Assembly (NCBI RefSeq): GCF_988242995.1
Contig: NZ_OZ547043.1
DNA: 64,000 bases
Strand: one strand, 5' to 3'
This document shows positions 18,159 through 32,245 of the stretch, piece by piece. Each line of letters begins with the position of its first letter. Positions within the stretch are counted from its first letter, which is position 1. The position numbers were made by a program, and so were the translations under genes. The notes under the pieces are model-generated. The model saw nothing but the letters and a program-made list of their open reading frames with translations, was not told the origin of the DNA and searched no databases.

Positions 18159-18557
18159 ATGCATATACTGGATTCTCTTCTTGCCTTTAGTGCCTATTTT
18201 TTTATTGGCGTGGCTATGGTGATTATTTTTCTGTTTATCTATTCTAAAATTACACCGCACAACGAATGGCAGTTAATCAAAAACAATAATACCGCGGCGT
18301 CACTGGCGTTCAGCGGTACATTGTTGGGTTACGTGATCCCCTTATCCAGTGCGGCAATCAATGCGGTGAGTATTCCAGACTATTTCGCCTGGGGCGGGAT
18401 TGCTCTGGTGATTCAATTACTCGTTTTTGCTGGCGTCAGGCTTTATATGCCCGCATTAAGCGAAAAAATTATTAATCACAATACCGCAGCAGGAATGTTT
18501 ATGGGAACCGCCGCACTGGCTGGCGGTATTTTTAACGCAGCTTGTATGACATGGTAA
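18159..18557 (+). CDS. yjfL: small inner-membrane protein YjfL (DUF350)
   Basis: ORF 18078-18557; start at ATG 18159 (MHILDSLLAF...) gives 132 aa; multiple hydrophobic segments. Confidence 0.85.
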   Translation: MHILDSLLAFSAYFFIGVAMVIIFLFIYSKITPHNEWQLIKNNNTAASLAFSGTLLGYVIPLSSAAINAVSIPDYFAWGGIALVIQLLVFAGVRLYMPALSEKIINHNTAAGMFMGTAALAGGIFNAACMTW

Positions 18558-20454: not shown

Positions 20455-22080
20455 GTGCACTGGCAAACTCACACCGTTTTTAATCAACCTATACCATTAA
20501 ATAACAGCAACTTATACCTGTCTGACGGCGCGCTCTGTGAAGCGGTAACGCGTGAAGGTGCTGGCTGGGATAGCGATTTTCTAGCCAGTATTGGTCAGCA
20601 GTTAGGAACGGCTGAATCTCTTGAACTGGGGCGGCTGGCGAATGTGAATCCGCCTGAATTATTGCGCTACGATGCGCAAGGACGCCATCTGGACGATGTG
20701 CGTTTTCACCCCGCCTGGCACTTGCTGATGCAGGCGCTATGTACCAATCGGGTGCACAATCTTGCCTGGGAAGAAGACGCTCGCTCCGGCGCATTTGTGG
20801 CGCGCGCGGCGCGTTTTATGTTGCACGCACAGGTTGAGGCAGGGTCGTTATGTCCGATAACGATGACCTTTGCCGCCATGCCATTGCTGTTACAGATGTT
20901 ACCCGCGCCGTTTCAGGACTGGACCACGCCGCTGTTGAGCGATCGCTACGATTCTCACTTATTGCCAGGTGGGCAAAAACGCGGTTTGTTGATTGGCATG
21001 GGAATGACGGAAAAGCAGGGCGGTTCCGATGTCATGAGCAACACCACCCGCGCAGAGCGCCTGGAAGATGGCTCTTATCGGCTGGTGGGGCATAAATGGT
21101 TTTTCTCGGTGCCGCAAAGCGATGCGCATCTGGTGCTGGCGCAGACTACGGGCGGTTTGTCCTGCTTTTTTGTGCCGCGCTTTTTGCCTGACGGGCAACG
21201 CAACGCGATTCGCCTCGAGCGGCTGAAAGATAAGCTGGGTAATCGCTCTAACGCCAGCTGCGAAGTGGAGTTTCAGGATGCCATTGGCTGGTTGTTGGGG
21301 CAGGAAGGGGAAGGAATTCGTCTGATCCTGAAAATGGGTGGGATGACGCGTTTTGATTGCGCCCTGGGTAGCCATGCCATGATGCGCCGTGCATTTTCGC
21401 TAGCGATTTATCATGCACATCAACGCCATGTTTTTGGTAATCCATTGATCCAACAGCCCCTTATGCGTCATGTCTTAAGTCGCATGGCACTTCAGCTTGA
21501 AGGGCAAACGGCGTTGCTGTTTCGTCTTGCGCGAGCGTGGGACCGGCGTGCCGATGCCAAAGAAGCTCTGTGGGCGCGTTTATTTACGCCTGCGGCGAAA
21601 TTTGTGATCTGCAAACGAGGTATGCCGTTTGTGGCCGAAGCGATGGAGGTGCTGGGCGGCATTGGTTATTGCGAGGAGAGCGAGCTGCCGCGGCTTTACC
21701 GGGAGATGCCGGTAAACAGTATTTGGGAAGGTTCCGGTAATATTATGTGCCTGGATGTACTGCGCGTGCTCAATAAGCAAGCAGGTGTATACGACTTATT
21801 GTCGGAAGCATTTGTGGAAGTGAAAGGGCAGGATCGCTATTTTGATCGCGCGGTACGTCGTTTACAGCAGCAGCTGCGTAAGCCTGCTGAAGAACTGGGG
21901 CGAGAGATTACTCATCAGCTATTCCTGCTGGGCTGCGGTGCGCAAATGTTGAAATATGCCTCTCCGCCAATGGCGCAGGCGTGGTGTCAGGTGATGTTAG
22001 ATACGCGCGGCGGCGTACGGTTGTCAGAGCAGATCCAGAATGATTTATTGCTGCGGGCGACGGGGGGAGTGTGTGTGTAA
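20455..22080 (+). CDS. aidB: acyl-CoA-dehydrogenase-like adaptive-response protein AidB
   Basis: ORF 20437-22080; GTG start at 20455 (HWQTHTVFNQPIPL...) gives 541 aa. Confidence 0.92.
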   Translation: MHWQTHTVFNQPIPLNNSNLYLSDGALCEAVTREGAGWDSDFLASIGQQLGTAESLELGRLANVNPPELLRYDAQGRHLDDVRFHPAWHLLMQALCTNRVHNLAWEEDARSGAFVARAARFMLHAQVEAGSLCPITMTFAAMPLLLQMLPAPFQDWTTPLLSDRYDSHLLPGGQKRGLLIGMGMTEKQGGSDVMSNTTRAERLEDGSYRLVGHKWFFSVPQSDAHLVLAQTTGGLSCFFVPRFLPDGQRNAIRLERLKDKLGNRSNASCEVEFQDAIGWLLGQEGEGIRLILKMGGMTRFDCALGSHAMMRRAFSLAIYHAHQRHVFGNPLIQQPLMRHVLSRMALQLEGQTALLFRLARAWDRRADAKEALWARLFTPAAKFVICKRGMPFVAEAMEVLGGIGYCEESELPRLYREMPVNSIWEGSGNIMCLDVLRVLNKQAGVYDLLSEAFVEVKGQDRYFDRAVRRLQQQLRKPAEELGREITHQLFLLGCGAQMLKYASPPMAQAWCQVMLDTRGGVRLSEQIQNDLLLRATGGVCV

Positions 22081-22140
22081 GCGTATACGACTGATGCGAC
22101 GCTGGTTTCGATTAACTCAATGAAATATGTGAAAATTGTT

Positions 22141-22175
22141 AGCCGGACAAGGCGCTCGCGCCGCATCCGGCATTG
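22141..22175. repeat. REP (repetitive extragenic palindrome) element
   Basis: gccggacaaggcgctcgcgccgcatccggca, typical REP consensus. Confidence 0.6.
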
Positions 22176-22196
22176 TTCATTTGCTGTAGATGACAC

Positions 22197-22472
22197 TCAC
22201 GCATACAGGATCGCCTGTACGCGCCAGTTATCAGGCTGCTGGTCTTCGTACATGGTAATAATGCGGTACCATGACGCACCTTGTTCATCGGCCTTTAACG
22301 CCACGATACGTTCCACGTCCTGCGGATCCCCTGAAATATTGCTAACTGAGATCTGACCTATTTCATTCAGGCCCGTCACGCAGTCAGCACTGGCGAATTC
22401 TGCAGACTGTGCCGTGGCGCTCGCAGGATAAGTCACTAATTGCAGCGAGGGTGAGGCAAGTAATTGTTTCAT
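22197..22472 (-). CDS. yjfN: DUF1471 (YhcN-family) periplasmic protein YjfN
   Basis: ORF 22197-22499; start at internal Met (MKQLLASPSL...) gives 91 aa; signal peptide. Confidence 0.85.
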   Translation of the reverse strand: MKQLLASPSLQLVTYPASATAQSAEFASADCVTGLNEIGQISVSNISGDPQDVERIVALKADEQGASWYRIITMYEDQQPDNWRVQAILYA

Positions 22473-22620
22473 CGTCAGCTCCATTTTTCGTTTCCCCACA
22501 TGTTGCAGGGCATTCCATCGCGGTAATAAACGCCCGAGCTTCCAGCCGGTAATTTATTGTGCACAGGTAAACGCATAGGGACGCAAAGCAATGTAAAGCT
22601 GACTATGTAAGTTGTCTGAT

Positions 22621-22950
22621 TTATTTACGGTACAAAATGGCTTGTGAATACCACTGTCCTGTCACGATGGTTTCGTCCACCATGACGACAACGTAATAAT
22701 CAGCTTTTGCAGCGATAGCTTTCGCTCTGATTTCTGCTAATGCGTCATCCGGAGAACCCCGAACCATCGTGCTTACGCTACCTATTCGCTGTAACCCTTG
22801 CGTCTGGTCGCGGCGAATCTCTTGCGGATGGTCCGTTACTGGCGGTGCTGGCTGTGGCGTACCTTGCAGTGCGCTACAGGCACTTAACATCAACACCAAT
22901 AATAAACTGGCAAACCGGTAAATAACGCTATTACGTTTCCTGCTAACCAT
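22621..22950 (-). CDS. bsmA: biofilm stress and motility lipoprotein BsmA (YjfO)
   Basis: ORF 22621-23049; start at MVSRKRNSVIYRF... gives 109 aa; lipobox LSAC. Confidence 0.85.
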   Translation of the reverse strand: MVSRKRNSVIYRFASLLLVLMLSACSALQGTPQPAPPVTDHPQEIRRDQTQGLQRIGSVSTMVRGSPDDALAEIRAKAIAAKADYYVVVMVDETIVTGQWYSQAILYRK

Positions 22951-23131
22951 AGTGTAGTGCCTTATTAATTTAACTTTGGGGGAATGTTCCCGAATTGTTA
23001 CCTGGTACGCGATTTTCGAATGAAAACGTGATGAAAGCGTAACCCACATCTCAACATTATGAACTAATACCGCCAGCAGAAACTTGTGCTAAGGATTTCT
23101 TCATGTCATACCAGACAAAAAGGAGAGACAG

Positions 23132-23881
23132 ATGATTGAAATAGAATCACGCGAGCTGGCAGATATTCCCATTCTTCATGCTTATCCTGTCGGGCAAAAA
23201 GATACCCCGTTACCGTGCGCGATTTTTTATCACGGCTTTACTTCGTCCAGTCTGGTGTATAGCTATTTTGCCGTTGCGCTGGCGCAGGCTGGTTTGCGGG
23301 TGATCATGCCGGATGCGCCCGATCACGGTAGTCGTTTTAGTGGCGACGCAGCGCGGCGGTTAAATCAATTTTGGCAAATATTGCTACAAAGTATGCAAGA
23401 ATTCACTACGTTACGTGCGGCAATAGCCGAAGAAAACTGGCTGCTTGCTGACCGTCTGGCAGTCGGTGGCGCGTCGATGGGCGCGATGACGGCACTGGGA
23501 ATTACCGCTCGCCACCCCACGGTGAAATGTACCGCCAGCATGATGGGATCGGGCTATTTTACATCGCTCGCCCGTTCACTGTTTCCACCGCTGATACCTG
23601 AAACGGCAGCACAGCAGAATGAATTCAATAACATTGTCGCGCCGCTGGCAGAGTGGGAAGCGACAAACCACCTGGAACAACTTGGTGACAGACCTCTACT
23701 GCTGTGGCATGGCCTTGACGATGACGTCGTGCCTGCCGACGAATCACTACGTTTGCAGCAGGCCTTAAGCGAGACGGGACGGGATAAACTGCTAACCTGT
23801 TCATGGCAGCCAGGCGTGCGTCACCGCATTACGCCTGAGGCGTTAGATGCTGCCGTGACATTTTTCCGCCAGCATCTTTAA
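23132..23881 (+). CDS. yjfP: alpha/beta-hydrolase esterase YjfP
   Basis: 249-aa ORF with GASMG nucleophile elbow. Confidence 0.9.
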
Positions 23882-24633
23882 ACACGCAGAATGCTGACCC
23901 CTTGCGCTTCCAGTTGTTGCAGGATTTCCGGGTTAGCATTTTTGCCGGTGATCAGCATATCGATTTGATCGGCACGGCTAAAAAGCATTCCCGCGCGTTC
24001 GCCAATCTTACTGCTATCAACCAGTACCACCAGTTTCCCTACCACGCTTAGCATCTTCTGCTCTGCCATTGCCGTCAGCATATCGGTTTTATACAACCCT
24101 TCTGCTGTCAGCCCTTTGCCGCTGGTAAACATCCAGTGCCCGGCATAGAGACTGTTTTCGCTGCCTTGCGGGCTTAAAGTGATGGACTGACTTTTGTTGT
24201 ACTGTCCGCCCATAATGATCACGCTGTCATGCTCCTGATCGATCAGGTAATTTGCCAGCGGTAGATAATTAGTGATGATTTGCACAGGCTTGCCACACAT
24301 TTCCCGCCCAAGCAGAAACGCGGTGGAGCCGCAGTTGATGACTACGCTTTCGCCCGGATTAACCAGCTGCGAGGCCGCTTTAGCAATACGTACTTTTTCA
24401 TCGTGATTCTGCGCCTGATGCAGATTCATCGGCGTCCAGCGCGGGCGCTGCTGGGTAATAGCTTCTGCGCCATTGCGCACTTTTTTCAGTTTGCCGCTTT
24501 CGTCAAGTTTATTGATATCGCGTCGCGCAGTGGCAGGCGAAATTCCCAGACGCTCAACGACTTTCTCAACGGTCACAAAGCCCAATTGTGCGAGCATTTC
24601 CAGGAGGATTTGATGTCTTTGTGCTTCAGTCAT
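23878..24633 (-). CDS. ulaR: DeoR-family repressor of the ascorbate regulon UlaR
   Basis: 251-aa ORF, N-terminal HTH ([43 protein letters not shown]). Confidence 0.95.
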
Positions 24634-24694
24634 GAGCTATTCCGATAAAATTTGATTTTTTTAGATGATATTTGAAATAGCCAGGAAATACTAC

Positions 24695-24728
24695 GCCGGA
24701 TAGCGCGAACTACTCCACGCTATCCGGT
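24695..24728 (-). terminator. candidate terminator downstream of ulaG
   Basis: Inverted repeat gccggatagcg...cgctatccggt. Confidence 0.4.
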
Positions 24729-24740
24729 ATAAACGACAGA

Positions 24741-25805
24741 TTACAGGAATGACTTGAACGGCAGATCCGGTTCAATAGTGAAGCAATCATCGAAACCACG
24801 CGGATAGTGGTACTCGAAGTTATCTTTATCCAACGGCCAGGTAAATTTGCCGCCCACCTGCCAGATAAACGGCTTGAAGCCATACTTCAGACGATCTTTT
24901 TTCATCTCCCACAGCACGCGGATTTCTTGCGGATCGGCCTGGAAGTTTGACCAGATGTCGTGGTGGAACGGGATAACCACTTTCGCATTCAGGGCTTCAC
25001 CCATACGCAGCATATCGGCGCTGGTCATTTTGTCGGTAATACCGCGCGGGTTCTCTCCGTACGAGCCTAACGCCACATCGATCTGATGTTCGTTACCGTG
25101 CTTCGCATAATAGTTAGAGTAGTGGGAATCGCCACTGTGATACAGGGAACCGCCAGGGGTTTTGAACAGGTAGTTTACTGCGCGATCGTCCATGCCATCT
25201 GGCAGTACGCCAGCCGCTTTTTGATCGGCAGGTAGGGTGATCAGTGCAGTACGGTCGAAAGCGTCAAGCGCATGAATTTCAATGTCTTTCACTTTTACAA
25301 CATCGCCCGGTTTGACCACGATGCAACGCTCTTTCGGTACGCCCCAGCCAATCCACAAATCAACGCAGGTTTTCGGTCCAATGAACGGTACGTCATCAGC
25401 ACAGTTCTGCATCACGGCAGCAGCGACGTTAACGTCGATATGATCGTTGTGATCGTGAGTCGCCAGTACCGCGTCGATCTGGCGAATCGCAAACGGATCA
25501 AGAACAAACGGGGTGGTGCGCAGGTTTGGCTGCAGTTTTTTCACGCCAGCCATGCGCTGCATCTGGTGACCCTGTTTCATTAACGGGTTACCGTGACTTT
25601 GTTTGCCAGTGCCGCACCAGAAATCAACGCAAACGTTGGTGCCACCTTCTGATTTCAGCCAGATCCCGGTGCAGCCTAGCCACCACATCGCAAATGTGCC
25701 AGGGGCGACCTGTTCTTGTTCAATTTCTTCATTCAACCAGCTACCCCACTCCGGGAAAGTGCTCAGGATCCAGGATTCACGGGTGATACTTTTCACTTTA
25801 CTCAT
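24741..25805 (-). CDS. ulaG: L-ascorbate-6-phosphate lactonase UlaG (metallo-beta-lactamase fold)
   Basis: ORF 24741-25811; start at [12 protein letters not shown] gives 354 aa; HxHxDH motif ([10 protein letters not shown]). Confidence 0.93.
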
Positions 25806-27557
<1,752 letters not shown>

Positions 27558-27572
27558 TAAGGAGTTTTGATT

Positions 27573-27878
27573 ATGACCGTACGTATTCTGGCTGTGTGTG
27601 GCAACGGACAAGGCAGTTCCATGATCATGAAAATGAAAGTGGACCAGTTTTTAACCCAATCAAACATTGACCACACGGTAAACAGCTGCGCGGTTGGCGA
27701 ATACAAAAGCGAGTTGAGCGGCGCGGATATCATCATCGCTTCTACGCACATTGCGGGCGAAATCACCGTGACCGGCAACAAATATGTGGTTGGCGTGCGC
27801 AACATGCTCTCTCCTGCTGACTTTGGCCCGAAACTGCTGGAAGTGATCAAAGAGCATTTCCCGCAGGATGTGAAGTAA
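27573..27878 (+). CDS. ulaB: ascorbate-specific PTS EIIB component UlaB
   Basis: 101 aa, active-site Cys in [10 protein letters not shown]. Confidence 0.93.
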
Positions 27879-27887
27879 GGACGCGCC

Positions 27888-28352
27888 ATGAAATTACGTG
27901 ATTCGCTGGCGGAGAATAAATCCATCCGCCTGCAGGCTGAAGCTGAGACATGGCAGGACGCAGTAAAAATCGGCGTTGACCTGCTGGTGGCGGCGGATGT
28001 TGTCGAGCCGCGTTACTACCAGGCGATTCTGGATGCGGTTGAACAGCACGGTCCGTACTTTGTGCTCGCACCAGGCCTGGCAATGCCGCACGGTCGCCCG
28101 GAAGAGGGCGTTAAGAAAACCGGTTTTGCGCTAGTGACGCTGAAAAAGCCGCTGGAGTTCAACCACGAAGATAACGATCCGGTGGATATCCTCATCACCA
28201 TGGCGGCGGTCGATGCCAACACTCACCAGGAAGTGGGCATCATGCAGATCGTCAATCTGTTTGAAGATGAAGAGAATTTCGACCGTTTACGTGCCTGCCG
28301 TACCGAGCAGGAAGTACTGGATCTCATTGACCGCACCAACGCGGCTGCTTAA
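27888..28352 (+). CDS. ulaC: ascorbate-specific PTS EIIA component UlaC
   Basis: 154-aa ORF. Confidence 0.93.
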
Positions 28353-28365
28353 GAAGGAATTGAAG

Positions 28366-29016
28366 ATGTCATTACCCATGTTGCAAGTCGCGCTGGACAA
28401 CCAGACTATGGATAGCGCTTACGAAACCACTCGCCTGATTGCCGAAGAAGTCGACATTATCGAAGTAGGCACCATTCTGTGCGTGGGCGAAGGTGTGCGT
28501 GCGGTTCGCGATCTGAAAGCGCTGTACCCGCACAAAATCGTACTGGCAGACGCCAAAATTGCCGATGCGGGCAAAATCCTTTCTCGTATGTGCTTCGAAG
28601 CCAACGCTGACTGGGTGACCGTGATTTGCTGTGCGGATATCAACACCGCCAAAGGCGCGCTGGACGTGGCAAAAGAGTTTAACGGCGACGTGCAGATCGA
28701 ACTGACTGGCTACTGGACCTGGGAACAGGCGCAACAGTGGCGCGACGCAGGTATTCAGCAGGTGGTTTATCACCGCAGCCGTGACGCACAGGCCGCAGGC
28801 GTGGCGTGGGGCGAAGCGGACATTACCGCGATCAAACGTCTTTCCGATATGGGCTTCAAAGTCACCGTCACCGGTGGCCTGGCGCTGGAAGATCTGCCGC
28901 TGTTCAAAGGCATTCCGATTCACGTCTTTATCGCGGGCCGTAGTATCCGTGATGCCGCTTCTCCGGTTGAAGCCGCGCGTCAGTTCAAACGTTCCATCGC
29001 CGAACTGTGGGGCTAA
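28366..29016 (+). CDS. ulaD: 3-keto-L-gulonate-6-phosphate decarboxylase UlaD
   Basis: ORF 28213-29016; start at ATG 28366 ([14 protein letters not shown]...) gives 216 aa. Confidence 0.93.
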
Positions 29017-29025
29017 GGAGCGGAT

Positions 29026-29880
29026 ATGTTGTCCAAACAAATCCCGCTTGGCATCTATGAAAAAGCGCTCCCCGCCGGGGAGTGCTGGCTGGAACGCCTG
29101 CAACTGGCAAAAACGTTAGGCTTCGATTTTGTCGAGATGTCGGTAGATGAAACGGACGATCGCCTTTCGCGCCTCGACTGGAGCCGCGAGCAGCGTCTGG
29201 CGCTGGTGAATGCGATTGTTGAAACCGGCGTGCGCGTGCCGTCCATGTGCCTTTCTGCTCATCGTCGTTTCCCGCTGGGTAGCGAAGATGACGCAGTGCG
29301 GGCGCAGGGGCTGGAGATTATGCGTAAAGCTATCCAGTTCGCCCAGGACGTCGGCATTCGCGTGATCCAACTGGCGGGCTATGACGTTTACTATCAGGAA
29401 GCCAATAACGAAACGCGTCGTCGTTTCCGTGACGGCCTGAAAGAGAGCGTTGAGATGGCAAGCCGCGCGCAGGTGACGCTGGCAATGGAGATCATGGATT
29501 ATCCATTGATGAACTCCATCAGCAAGGCGCTGGGCTATGCGCACTATCTCAACAACCCGTGGTTCCAGCTCTATCCGGATATCGGCAACCTGTCGGCGTG
29601 GGACAACGACGTGCAGATGGAATTGCAGGCCGGAATCGGGCATATCGTCGCGGTGCATGTGAAAGACACCAAACCAGGCGTCTTCAAAAATGTGCCGTTT
29701 GGCGAAGGCGTAGTGGATTTCGAACGTTGCTTCGAAACGCTCAAACAGAGTGGCTATTGCGGGCCGTACCTGATTGAGATGTGGAGCGAAACGGCGGAAG
29801 ACCCGGCGGCAGAAGTGGCGAAAGCGCGTGATTGGGTGAAAGCGCGCATGGCGAAAGCGGGCATGGTGGAGGCGGCATAA
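29026..29880 (+). CDS. ulaE: L-ribulose-5-phosphate 3-epimerase UlaE
   Basis: 284-aa ORF. Confidence 0.93.
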
Positions 29881-30566
29881 TGCAAAAGCTAAAACAGCAG
29901 GTATTTGAAGCCAACATGGATCTGCCGCGCTACGGGCTGGTGACCTTTACCTGGGGCAACGTCAGCGCCATTGACCGCGAACGCGGGCTGGTGGTGATCA
30001 AGCCCAGCGGCGTCGCCTACGAAACCATGAAAGCAGACGATATGGTAGTGGTCGATATGAGCGGCAAGGTGGTGGAAGGGGAATATCGTCCGTCTTCCGA
30101 CACCGCGACGCATCTTGAACTCTACCGTCGTTATCCGTCGCTTGGTGGTATTGTCCATACCCACTCCACTCATGCTACCGCATGGGCGCAGGCGGGGCTG
30201 GCGATCCCGGCGTTAGGCACCACGCACGCCGACTACTTCTTTGGCGATATCCCGTGCACGCGCGGATTAAGCGAAGAAGAGGTGCAGGGCGAGTACGAAC
30301 TGAACACTGGCAAAGTTATTATTGAAACGCTGGGCAACGCTGAACCGCTGCATACACCGGGGATTGTGGTGTATCAGCACGGGCCGTTCGCCTGGGGGAA
30401 AGATGCCCACGATGCGGTGCATAACGCGGTAGTGATGGAAGAAGTGGCGAAAATGGCGTGGATTGCGCGCGGCATTAACCCACAACTGAATCATATCGAC
30501 AGCTTCCTGATGAATAAACACTTCATGCGTAAGCACGGTCCTAACGCTTATTACGGGCAGAAGTAA
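29880..30566 (+). CDS. ulaF: L-ribulose-5-phosphate 4-epimerase UlaF
   Basis: ORF 29832-30566; start at ATG 29880 ([12 protein letters not shown]...) gives 228 aa; start overlaps ulaE stop (taATG). Confidence 0.93.
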
Positions 30567-30627
30567 AACACGCGCTGCGGAAATTTCCTTCTTCGGGAGA
30601 TAACTGGTCTAATTCCGCAGCCGTTTT

Positions 30628-30654
30628 TCAAAAAAAGCCCCCTGCGAAGGGGGC
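30628..30654 (-). terminator. rho-independent terminator of yjfY (may also act on ulaF)
   Basis: gccccct-gcgaa-gggggc hairpin with A-run on plus strand = U-run on minus strand. Confidence 0.65.
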
Positions 30655-30694
30655 AAAGCAAACTATGGCAATGTTTCGTTGGTTATACCTGGTG

Positions 30695-30970
30695 CTAGCG
30701 ATAAATATCCGCGCTGGCGTGCATATTGCCGTTACTCCCCGGTTCCCGCATCAGAATTACGTGGTAGTACGTTGCGCCTTGCGCATCTGTCTCTTCATTT
30801 AATGCCTGACGTGCTTCACTTTCAGTTGCGAAATTATGATTGATATAAATCACGCCTAAGCTTTGCACATCATCCATATTTCTGGCCTGGTGGTTATTAA
30901 TTTCAATGGCTGCCCATGTATTTGCACTTAGCAAAAGCACAGCCAGAAGGGCTAAAACACGACTGAACAT
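30695..30970 (-). CDS. yjfY: DUF1471 (YhcN-family) periplasmic protein YjfY
   Basis: ORF 30695-31039; start at MFSRVLALLAVLLLSANTWA gives 91 aa; signal peptide. Confidence 0.85.
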   Translation of the reverse strand: MFSRVLALLAVLLLSANTWAAIEINNHQARNMDDVQSLGVIYINHNFATESEARQALNEETDAQGATYYHVILMREPGSNGNMHASADIYR

Positions 30971-31278
30971 AGATACCTCCTCGACGGCTGACTTTGTGTG
31001 CTCTCCTCTGTGATGATCTTCTGATTTAATTTTAATCAATGATAAAGAAGTTGATGGTGACCATTTCTGATGCAGTTGTTCAAAAAAACACCATGATGAA
31101 GTGTGATGAACTTCAAATCAGCGTGTTAGTACGATTTGGTGAAAGATGAGATTTATTTGTCGGCTGGCCTTGAGTTTAGCAGGGTATGTCAGTACTATAA
31201 TGCGTCATTTTTCAGCCGACCTTTAACACGTTCCTTGCCTCCCCGGGATTCGGCTGACCCAGACAGGAGGCTGAATAA

Positions 31279-31692
<414 letters not shown>

Positions 31693-31698
31693 TTTCTG

Positions 31699-32245
<547 letters not shown>

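Follow-up and report, generated by a model that had tools for sequence, protein, structure and literature searches.

The window analysed here, a 64-kb stretch of DNA, holds three small genes that encode exported proteins of the DUF1471 family, namely yjfN, bsmA (yjfO) and yjfY (Table 1). RefSeq coordinates map exactly onto the three genes that the first-pass annotation had named, confirming their identities as well as the arrangement of yjfN and bsmA as a same-strand tandem. The window is E. coli chromosomal DNA. Bases 21900-23200 are 100% identical to DNA of E. coli NRZ14408, and of 5426 complete E. coli genomes 5424 contain this stretch. The third gene, yjfY, had been described as adjoining the ula regulon, and indeed it sits between ulaF (ending at 30566) and the rpsF leader (31215-31299), so that the ula gene block fills the gap that places yjfY 8 kb from bsmA and yjfN. 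An Rfam scan of 21000-32000 returned the RpsF leader alone and nothing near yjfN, bsmA or yjfY. On the far side of yjfN, the spacer toward aidB is a single-copy conserved region by megablast and contains an imperfect palindrome with arms of 14 nt each (GCCGGACAAGGCGC/GCGCCGCATCCGGC; 79% complementary), which we take to resemble the REP consensus.

Table 1. Features of the yjfN-bsmA-yjfY region, in coordinates of the window.
Feature	Position	Strand	Description
yjfN	22197..22472	-	RefSeq CDS WP_000811566.1, "DUF1471 family protease activator YjfN"; 91 aa; PF07338
bsmA (yjfO)	22621..22950	-	RefSeq CDS WP_000254634.1; 109-aa DUF1471 lipoprotein (predicted); PF07338, NF011433
yjfY	30695..30970	-	RefSeq CDS WP_000492914.1; 91-aa DUF1471 protein; PF07338
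bsmA-yjfN spacer	22473..22620	-	148 bp
CpxR-box-like tandem pentamer (candidate)	22583..22597	+	GCAAAGCAATGTAAA
In-frame ATG	22482..22484	-	12 nt upstream of the annotated yjfN start; read from sequence
yjfP esterase gene	23132..23881	+	divergent from bsmA
ulaR-ulaG-ulaABCDEF block	23878..30566	.	RefSeq annotation
REP-like imperfect palindrome	22142..22171	.	between convergent aidB and yjfN

All three proteins match the Pfam model PF07338 (YdgH/BhsA/McbA-like; DUF1471) over essentially the whole of its 55 positions, scoring 63.0 bits (YjfN), 55.2 bits (BsmA) and 71.6 bits (YjfY), which is 2-2.6x the gathering cut-off of 27 bits. The C-terminal peptides from which their kinship had originally been read are correct against the translations, and the assignment of the trio to a single family stands. 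A six-frame HMM scan of the 813 window ORFs of at least 40 aa gave exactly three family matches (E 1e-23 to 1e-28), with no fourth DUF1471 copy among them. Mature proteins were also compared pairwise by Smith-Waterman alignment against 2000 composition-preserving shuffles per pair, which yielded z = 11.5, 9.1 and 6.3 for the three pairs, with 0, 0 and 1 shuffles matching the observed score. Since the observed scores lie above the shuffles for every pair, the similarity is not compositional, the one outcome that had been named as fatal to the original claim. The sequence search of the PDB with YjfN returned marginal matches only (best E=0.12, YdgH-N), so that a fold comparison was needed. This structural comparison, suggested at the outset, was run for BsmA and YjfN, and both predicted models match solved DUF1471 structures. 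The AF2 model of BsmA (pLDDT 86.8) has DUF1471 structures as its best PDB matches (2m2j, TMt 0.79, rmsd 2.1; 4evu, TMt 0.79), and that of YjfN, with a β-α-β-β core at pLDDT >90, is best matched by 2jna, 2m2j, 2ma8 and 4evu (TMt 0.72, rmsd 1.4 for the last), the fold of both being the mixed α+β type of the solved SrfN, YahO and YdgH domains. That the C-terminal pattern is merely compositional or convergent in non-homologous proteins, as the pairwise identity of only 22-30% and the failure of BLASTP to return any alignment of YjfN with YjfY might suggest, can be dismissed as virtually impossible in view of the Pfam E-values (1e-15 to 1e-20), the shuffle test and the common predicted fold.

Within the family, the three proteins differ from one another. 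The NCBIfam equivalog model for BsmA (NF011433; cut-off 100) scores 151.6 bits with BsmA, while YjfN (52.0 bits) and YjfY (31.9 bits) fall below the cut-off and are therefore not BsmA. The model for YhcN proper (NF033776) gives 51.8 bits for YjfN, 26.7 for BsmA and 51.1 for YjfY, all below its cut-off of 125, and going by these scores the label "YhcN family" used earlier fits the trio only in a loose superfamily sense. YjfN, YjfO and YjfY have been described as separate paralogous subfamilies of DUF1471 (Eletsky et al., 2014; PMC4092069). Named homologues come nearly all from Enterobacterales genera, the exceptions being two isolated records labelled Pseudomonas, and the whole DUF1471 family falls into 509 clusters (50% identity) out of 1.84 billion representatives. 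In profile score and size all three proteins agree with the DUF1471/YhcN/BhsA-McbA family, as do BsmA and YjfY in their hydrophobic N-termini and BsmA and YjfN in their modelled fold, without a difference in kind. With good confidence, the known yjfN, bsmA and yjfY can be regarded as anciently diverged, Enterobacterales-restricted members of DUF1471 (YhcN/BhsA/McbA), encoding small exported α/β proteins. The copies would be non-redundant, sharing the β-α-β-β domain but differing in targeting, termini and regulation.

BsmA is distinguished by its N-terminal half. A strongly hydrophobic signal peptide (Kyte-Doolittle, KD, 2.89) with the lipobox LSAC (Cys25, with Ser26 at +2) is followed by a proline-rich linker and by the domain at residues 53-108. 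Among aligned BsmA orthologues, neither the lipobox cysteine nor the linker prolines vary, the cysteine being constant in full-length sequences from 10 genera in four families. LSAC fits the lipobox pattern [LVI][ASTVI][GAS]C where the signal peptide ends, and a lipobox motif occurs in 8 of 141 single-domain family representatives, seven of them BsmA-type. Because of the lipobox with Ser at +2 and the conserved linker, BsmA is probably lipid-anchored, most likely in the outer membrane. BsmA/YjfO is said to have been described by Weber and colleagues in 2010 as a biofilm and peroxide-stress protein. The bsmA promoter is recognised by the σS holoenzyme, which forms an open complex there (PMC4447067). 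Published knowledge of BsmA is at the level of phenotype. In layout the protein resembles RcsF, an outer-membrane lipoprotein stress sensor that likewise has a small α/β domain along with a lipobox and a Pro-rich linker, and after DUF1471 the next PDB folds matching the BsmA model are RcsF structures (2y1b, TMt 0.66, rmsd 2.8, E 7e-3; 2l8y), with 15-17% identity in the alignments. At the sequence level, the RcsF model NF008048 matches BsmA at 12.9 bits (E=0.09; cut-off 140) over residues 16-51 only, i.e. the signal and linker. The predicted fold resemblance is second-tier, and a likeness in fold between RclB and RcsF has already been published (PMC12096828). RcsF is further characterised by threading through outer-membrane proteins and by signalling through IgaA, while the likeness of BsmA rests on layout and predicted fold; by analogy, an RcsF-like role is conceivable for BsmA, that of an outer-membrane lipoprotein monitoring or contacting porins.

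YjfN differs from its relatives at both ends. It terminates in ...QAILYA, compared with ...YRK in BsmA and ...IYR in YjfY, and is the sole one of the 10 E. coli paralogues with a hydrophobic last residue, the other nine ending in K or R, as do 95 of 141 single-domain family representatives. The terminal residue is Ala or Val in 14 of 14 aligned YjfN orthologues, while the YjfN-like proteins of Nissabacter and Edaphovirga have a terminal Arg. PMC12096828 and bioRxiv 2024.12.25.630354 cite Kim et al. (2018; J Bacteriol 200:e00519-17) for YjfN as a "suicide activator" of DegP; in the account given there, its C-terminal Ala engages DegP, the protease is activated and YjfN itself is degraded. The protein encoded in the window is the "protease activator YjfN" of RefSeq and has the C-terminal Ala that this mechanism needs. 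By contrast, BsmA and YjfY lack a hydrophobic C-terminal residue, and with their basic termini such action would not be expected of either. The first-pass statement that the molecular function of the family is unclear thus has to be revised for YjfN, as a published DegP activator, but holds for the mechanism of BsmA and for YjfY. YjfN would be a soluble periplasmic protein of the Cpx envelope-stress modulon, its periplasmic location coming from the literature. Its presequence is weakly hydrophobic (KD 1.45; orthologues 0.62-2.27) compared with 2.09-3.48 in other paralogues, so that the export route is not obvious from the sequence; this degenerate presequence may reflect inefficient or conditional export. 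An interpretation of its "LSAG"-type motif as a decayed lipobox was set aside as unconvincing, since several non-lipoprotein paralogues have an LLSA-like motif in their signal peptides. Translation from the in-frame upstream ATG would yield the N-terminus MELTMKQ..., and a MELT(T)MK extension is also annotated in Kosakonia, Lelliottia, Scandinavium and Pluralibacter. In Ribo-RET data, yjfN shows a second peak of initiation ahead of its annotated start (10.1101/520783), making this ATG a possible second initiation site.

YjfY, which has the highest N-terminal hydrophobicity among the paralogues (KD 3.48), carries a canonical, cleavable signal peptide (...LLLSANTWA/AIE) and would be a soluble periplasmic paralogue with no function assigned. 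Its best matches by BLASTP and hhalign are YhcN and YdgH, and positional orthologues are found in Kosakonia (78% identity), Klebsiella (68%) and Yersinia (38%).

The spacer between bsmA and yjfN contains a block, TTTACAyTGCTTTGC...CCTGTGCACAATA, that is conserved in E. coli, Klebsiella and Kosakonia and partly in Pluralibacter. It also contains a CpxR-like box (GCAAAGCAATGTAAA) that matches GTAAA-N5-GTAAA with one mismatch and is located 111-125 nt upstream of the yjfN ATG. One-mismatch matches of this kind number eight in the 64 kb, which corresponds to a chance of ~2% of finding one in the spacer, and the candidate box is kept in other genera. Furthermore, yjfN is a member of the CpxR iModulon (PMC7657598). 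Judged from conservation, the spacer probably holds yjfN's own promoter region. A consensus scan of 22000-23200 gave no σ70 promoter, and a scan of the same interval for intrinsic terminators found as the sole terminator-like site one inside bsmA on the wrong strand; yjfN may therefore be co-transcribed with bsmA, and its independent transcription is judged from the conservation and the literature. RNA folding of the spacer revealed no significant structure (z = -1.6).

The adjacency of yjfN and yjfO has been taken as evidence of family expansion by duplication (Eletsky et al., 2014; PMC4092069), and the genes, the family and this argument are already known. The first-pass annotation had extended the idea of local duplication to all three copies. 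For yjfN and bsmA, a tandem duplication is plausible. BsmA has YjfN as its nearest E. coli paralogue by BLASTP (33 bits, next best 21; pairwise E=5e-6, 30% identity over 87 aa), and YjfN is the second-best E. coli match of the positional BsmA orthologue in 9 of 10 genera. In comparisons of subfamily profiles by hhalign, BsmA and YjfN score 93 (next best 79), and the BsmA model is the top NCBIfam match of YjfN. The relation is not reciprocal, as YjfN scores higher with YhcN (42 bits vs 28). In bootstraps, YjfN+BsmA is the commonest of the pairings scored, yet it reaches only 55% in the E. coli-only tree (12 domains) and 21% in the family tree (162 domains). The trees rest on ~64 alignable columns, so that the deep branching is beyond these methods; the family-wide neighbour-joining (NJ) tree leaves deep branches unsettled and no supported topology is claimed. 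The family alignment and phylogeny proposed earlier hence upheld the similarity as real but gave no statistical support to a YjfN-BsmA sister grouping, a relationship that the sequences alone do not prove.

Alternatively, yjfN could be a YhcN-like paralogue brought next to bsmA by translocation or horizontal acquisition, the adjacency being secondary. YhcN is the top paralogue both for YjfN of E. coli and for each of the positional YjfN orthologues examined. In the best family-wide NJ tree the pair is split, YjfN lying on the side of YhcN, BhsA and YbiJ and BsmA on that of YdgH. Moreover, yjfN is absent from the bsmA loci of Yersinia, Rouxiella, Pantoea and Pectobacterium (four loci, one genome per genus), which could be due to loss or to the gene never having been present, and an origin from bsmA would need the loss of both lipobox and linker. 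However, the nearest relative of BsmA is consistently YjfN, a faster BsmA branch accounts for the asymmetry equally well, and with 10 paralogues in 4.6 Mb a chance placement as same-strand neighbours 148 bp apart is very unlikely. Nissabacter (Yersiniaceae) and an Edaphovirga-like contig carry the bsmA-yjfN tandem as well, their yjfN-like gene being more divergent. On balance, acquisition from elsewhere appears rather unlikely, although it deserves to be kept in mind ahead of the alternative that follows.

Less credible still is an origin of all three genes from one local amplification, with yjfY as the third product of the series. In Klebsiella sp., yjfY-yjfP-bsmA-yjfN lie within about 2 kb, and in Yersinia yjfP is flanked by yjfY and bsmA; YjfN, BsmA, YjfY and the YdgH domains share a loop between the last two strands that exceeds that of the six other E. 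coli paralogues by 2-3 residues, and the hhalign score of YjfN with YjfY (92) is near the best of YjfN. Against this, BLASTP aligns YjfY with BsmA (E=1e-3) but not with YjfN, the three form a clade in 2.5% of the 162-domain bootstraps (BsmA+YjfY 9.5%, YjfN+YjfY 3.5%), and YjfY, closest to YhcN and YdgH, groups with the YdgH domains at 61% in the E. coli-only tree, in which these domains themselves group at 74%. In addition, yjfP separates yjfY from bsmA. YjfY is thus without specific affinity to the pair, and the claim of local duplication is best confined to yjfN and bsmA.

Gene order adds a history to the tandem duplication of yjfN and bsmA. The bsmA gene occupies the same locus across four Enterobacterales families and, of the genes in the aidB-yjfP interval, would be the oldest and the most widespread; yjfN most likely arose beside it via an old tandem duplication. 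If the Nissabacter and Edaphovirga copies were vertically inherited, this duplication would predate the split of Enterobacteriaceae and Yersiniaceae. It would have been followed by asymmetric divergence, with a later change of Arg to Ala at the C-terminus in the Enterobacteriaceae YjfN lineage. In Klebsiella and Yersinia, yjfP is the sole gene between bsmA and yjfY, and by this gene order yjfY is an old neighbour of bsmA, presumably separate and older, beyond yjfP. Klebsiella sp., Yersinia, Rouxiella and Pantoea lack the ula block in the corresponding interval and Kosakonia has it, and its placement between yjfP and yjfY would have moved yjfY 8 kb off in the Escherichia lineage. Local duplication is seen elsewhere in the same family, in the three-domain YdgH and in the adjacency of yhcN/ycfR-like genes noted in Salmonella (PMC4092069), but the YdgH repeats are still fused and mutually closest, whereas yjfN and bsmA are separate genes with far more asymmetric divergence. 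A more speculative scenario, which as a whole we consider improbable, combines the origin of yjfN from a bsmA duplicate lacking anchor and linker, the subsequent Arg to Ala change in Enterobacteriaceae only, an RcsF-like role of BsmA and conditional export of YjfN. If true, a tethered envelope protein would have given rise to a soluble, Cpx-induced and self-consuming activator of DegP.

What is added here, read from gene order and protein sequences, is the locus history, with bsmA in four families, yjfN missing at four non-Enterobacteriaceae loci and the ula gap, and the predicted lipoprotein-plus-linker architecture of BsmA kept over the four families. The import beyond housekeeping is small, the modest gain being that the locus history is clearer and the paralogues contrast more sharply, i.e. 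lipid anchor vs soluble protein and basic vs hydrophobic C-terminus, which points to simple swap experiments on the envelope roles of unassigned DUF1471 members.

Recent gene conversion was considered for the shared QAILY C-termini and rejected, as their codons disagree at each third position (CAGGCGATCCTGTAT vs CAAGCCATTTTGTAC). As a separate observation, yjfL is frameshifted in NRZ14408 according to RefSeq, yet it is present in the window as an intact ORF of 132 aa.

The window is a piece of the E. coli chromosome. Across window positions 21900-23200 the sequence matches E. coli NRZ14408 at 100%, and the stretch is found in 5424 of 5426 complete E. coli genomes. Gene positions were taken from the RefSeq annotation of the NRZ14408 record and mapped onto the window. 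They agree exactly with the three positions in the first-pass annotation, which had also described the arrangement correctly, a minus-strand yjfN/bsmA pair with yjfY beside the ula genes, and had quoted the C-terminal peptides of YjfN, BsmA and YjfY as they appear in the translations. The gene aidB is convergent with yjfN and yjfP is divergent from bsmA; beyond yjfP come ulaR/G/ABCDEF, followed by yjfY and then by the rpsF operon. Between the convergent aidB and yjfN there is an imperfect palindrome of REP-like type (GCCGGACAAGGCGC / GCGCCGCATCCGGC). RefSeq flags a frameshift for yjfL in the 100%-matching NRZ14408; in the window the gene is an intact 132-aa ORF beginning MHILD..., and the flag may be an annotation artefact.

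Coordinates of the features discussed (window positions unless a locus is named)
Feature	Position	Strand	Description	Source
yjfL	18159-18557		132-aa ORF	
REP-like palindrome	22142-22171			
yjfN	22197-22472	minus	DUF1471 family protease activator	RefSeq
YjfN residues 24-39	22356-22403		AEFASADCVTGLNEIG	
YjfN presequence	22400-22472		residues 1-23	
Upstream in-frame ATG	22482-22484		12 nt upstream of annotated yjfN start	
CpxR-type tandem pentamer	22583-22597		GCAAAGCAATGTAAA (repeat also given as TTTACATTGCTTTGC); in 148-bp bsmA-yjfN spacer	
bsmA	22621-22950	minus	biofilm peroxide resistance protein	RefSeq
BsmA Pro-rich linker	about 22800-22875		ALQGTPQPAPPVTDHPQEIRRDQTQGL	
yjfY	30695-30970	minus	DUF1471 family protein	RefSeq
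RpsF leader RNA	31215-31299		just past yjfY, upstream of rpsF; 110 bits	Rfam RF02893
Cache-domain chemotaxis gene, Kosakonia	L010 10458-12392			
Cache-domain chemotaxis gene, Pantoea	L015 3013-4944			
Cache-domain chemotaxis gene, Pectobacterium	L016 967-2907			

The assignment of all three proteins to DUF1471 is right, with PF07338 scores (YjfN 63.0, BsmA 55.2, YjfY 71.6 bits) far over the cut-off of 27 bits, and a six-frame HMM scan finds exactly three copies in the window. BLASTP aligns YjfN with BsmA (E=5e-6, 30% identity across 87 aa) and BsmA with YjfY (E=1e-3), and returns no alignment of YjfN with YjfY. A resemblance of composition only fails as an explanation, because Smith-Waterman scores of the mature proteins exceed those of 2000 composition-preserving shuffles (z = 11.5, 9.1 and 6.3 across the three pairs); the similarity is real. 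The AlphaFold2 models of BsmA (pLDDT 86.8) and YjfN (core >90) contain the beta-alpha-beta-beta domain, and in the PDB they come closest to solved structures of DUF1471 domains, from YdgH and SrfN. Eletsky et al. [quoted passage not shown] The YjfN biochemical role and the BsmA phenotype are likewise published, and the observation at this locus, although confirmed, counts as already known because it is nothing new in kind.

Local duplication of all three genes, as first proposed, is plausible for yjfN/bsmA and unsupported for yjfY, so that the earlier interpretation as a whole is partly supported, being right in family and arrangement and partial in its duplication reading. When all ten E. coli K-12 paralogues were compared all-against-all by BLASTP, the best partner of BsmA was YjfN (33 bits, next 21), while that of YjfN was YhcN (42 bits), with BsmA fourth (28 bits). 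Profile-profile scores follow the same pattern (BsmA subfamily: YjfN 93, next 79; YjfN subfamily: YhcN 99, BsmA 93, YbiJ 93, YjfY 92), and E. coli YjfN is the second-best match of the positional BsmA orthologue in nine of ten genera, YhcN being the second match of every positional YjfN. A neighbour-joining tree of 12 E. coli domains joins YjfN and BsmA with 55% bootstrap. A profile search recovered 509 family clusters among 1.84 billion representatives, and in a neighbour-joining tree of 162 non-redundant domains taken from these the pairing is absent, occurring in 21% of 200 bootstraps, the top of the pairings scored but not significant (YjfN+RclB, 13%). Tandem duplication of yjfN/bsmA followed by accelerated divergence of BsmA would be the simplest account of the adjacency and the one-way nearest-neighbour status and is slightly more likely than not, although it is beyond proof since only about 64 columns are alignable. 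YjfY has no specific relation to this pair. BLASTP pairs it best with YhcN (39 bits) and YdgH (38 bits), and its top profile-profile partner is YhcN (104); it joins the YdgH domains in the E. coli-only tree (61%), and the family-wide bootstraps give 9.5% for BsmA+YjfY and 2.5% for all three together. Its signal peptide is canonical and the most hydrophobic among the ten paralogues, and among 12 of 15 papers that mention yjfY none points to functional work on it.

That yjfY lies 8 kb away is secondary, owing to the ula block that sits between it and yjfP. In Klebsiella sp. (L008) the order is rpsF, yjfY, yjfP, bsmA, yjfN, aidB, without ula genes, and the three DUF1471 genes lie inside about 2 kb; Kosakonia (L010) has the ula block, like E. 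coli, and Pluralibacter (L009) carries the bsmA-yjfN tandem with a fimbrial operon past yjfP. The gene bsmA is at the locus in all genomes examined, one per genus, from four Enterobacterales families, while yjfN was found at none of the four bsmA loci of Yersinia kristensenii (L014; rpsF, yjfY-like, yjfP, bsmA, aidB), Rouxiella (L013; rpsF, yjfP, bsmA, aidB), Pantoea (L015; bsmA only, adjoining aidB) and Pectobacterium (L016; bsmA only, aidB not adjacent), where the gene may have been lost or may never have been present. On Nissabacter-like and Edaphovirga-like contigs bsmA is followed by a yjfN-like gene, whose products are 42-45% identical to E. coli YjfN and end in ...YR, not Ala. From these sequences we infer that the activating C-terminal Ala of YjfN is a later change specific to Enterobacteriaceae. 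A Cache-domain methyl-accepting chemotaxis protein gene, absent from the E. coli interval, lies in or beside the yjfP-bsmA-yjfN-aidB interval of Kosakonia, Pantoea and Pectobacterium.

YjfN is soluble, and alone among the ten E. coli paralogues it has a hydrophobic C-terminal residue (...ILYA). K or R takes this place in the other nine and in 95 of 141 family representatives. The terminal Ala is retained in 14 YjfN orthologues from >10 genera (Val in one). According to the account in PMC12096828, it enables YjfN to activate DegP while itself being degraded (Kim et al., 2018), and that work has been put to experimental use (bioRxiv 2024.12.25.630354), so that the description of the function as unclear is out of date for this published DegP activator. 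In the 14-orthologue alignment mature YjfN is nearly invariant and the presequence hypervariable. The presequence is weakly hydrophobic, with a maximum 10-residue Kyte-Doolittle mean of 1.45 (0.62-2.27 in 13 orthologues versus 2.09-3.48 in the nine other E. coli paralogues). Residues 24-39, which mostly precede the Pfam domain, are invariant in 14/14 orthologues, including the single Cys31, and have no regular secondary structure in the AlphaFold model, whose confidence drops there (pLDDT about 52-75); they may form a conserved interaction or cleavage segment.

The gene yjfN is a member of the CpxR iModulon (PMC7657598). The CpxR-type pentamer in the bsmA-yjfN spacer, one of eight one-mismatch matches in 64 kb, is followed by CCTGTGCACAATA, reaching about 22555; Klebsiella and Kosakonia share this conserved block, and Pluralibacter has part of it. 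The block is probably the yjfN promoter region, and conservation of the repeat fits an independent Cpx-responsive yjfN promoter with a candidate CpxR site; a simple promoter/terminator scan of the spacer found nothing. An in-frame ATG upstream of the annotated start (MELTMKQ...) is kept in several genera, and a Ribo-RET study reported that translation initiation has a second peak ahead of yjfN.

BsmA consists of a signal peptide that ends in the lipobox LSAC (Cys25, Ser at +2), a Pro-rich linker and the domain. In the aligned orthologues from Escherichia, Salmonella, Citrobacter, Klebsiella, Pluralibacter and Kosakonia, neither the lipobox Cys nor the prolines of the linker vary, and much of the remaining linker is constant too; lipobox and linker are also kept in Yersinia, Rouxiella, Pantoea, Pectobacterium and the Nissabacter-like and Edaphovirga-like BsmA. 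The lipobox motif occurs in 8 of 141 single-domain family representatives, seven of them BsmA-type. Lipoprotein sorting is governed by the +2 rule, with Ser at +2 directing to the outer membrane, so that BsmA is predicted to be sorted there. Past the DUF1471 structures, the BsmA model comes closest in fold to RcsF (2y1b, 2l8y) and to 9biy chain B, from an entry for the periplasmic domain of IgaA; the second-tier match to 2y1b has TMt 0.66 and E 7e-3, and RcsF was not found among the top 50 PDB folds for the YjfN model. RcsF and BsmA share the layout of lipobox plus Pro linker, but BsmA scores 12.9 bits against the RcsF sequence model (cut-off 140), so the resemblance is a lead, not membership; a likeness in fold between DUF1471 (RclB) and RcsF is already in print (PMC12096828). 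At the bsmA promoter, open complexes are formed specifically by the sigma-S holoenzyme in vitro (PMC4447067). Rare E. coli BsmA alleles (P0129, P0145, P0175, P0184, P0170) vary in length between 104 and 117 aa. They differ by tandem duplications of 8 residues (ALQGTPQP or QEIRRDQT) or by small deletions; most of these changes fall in the Pro-rich linker, that of P0184 within the domain helix, and a few rare alleles have read-through C-termini.
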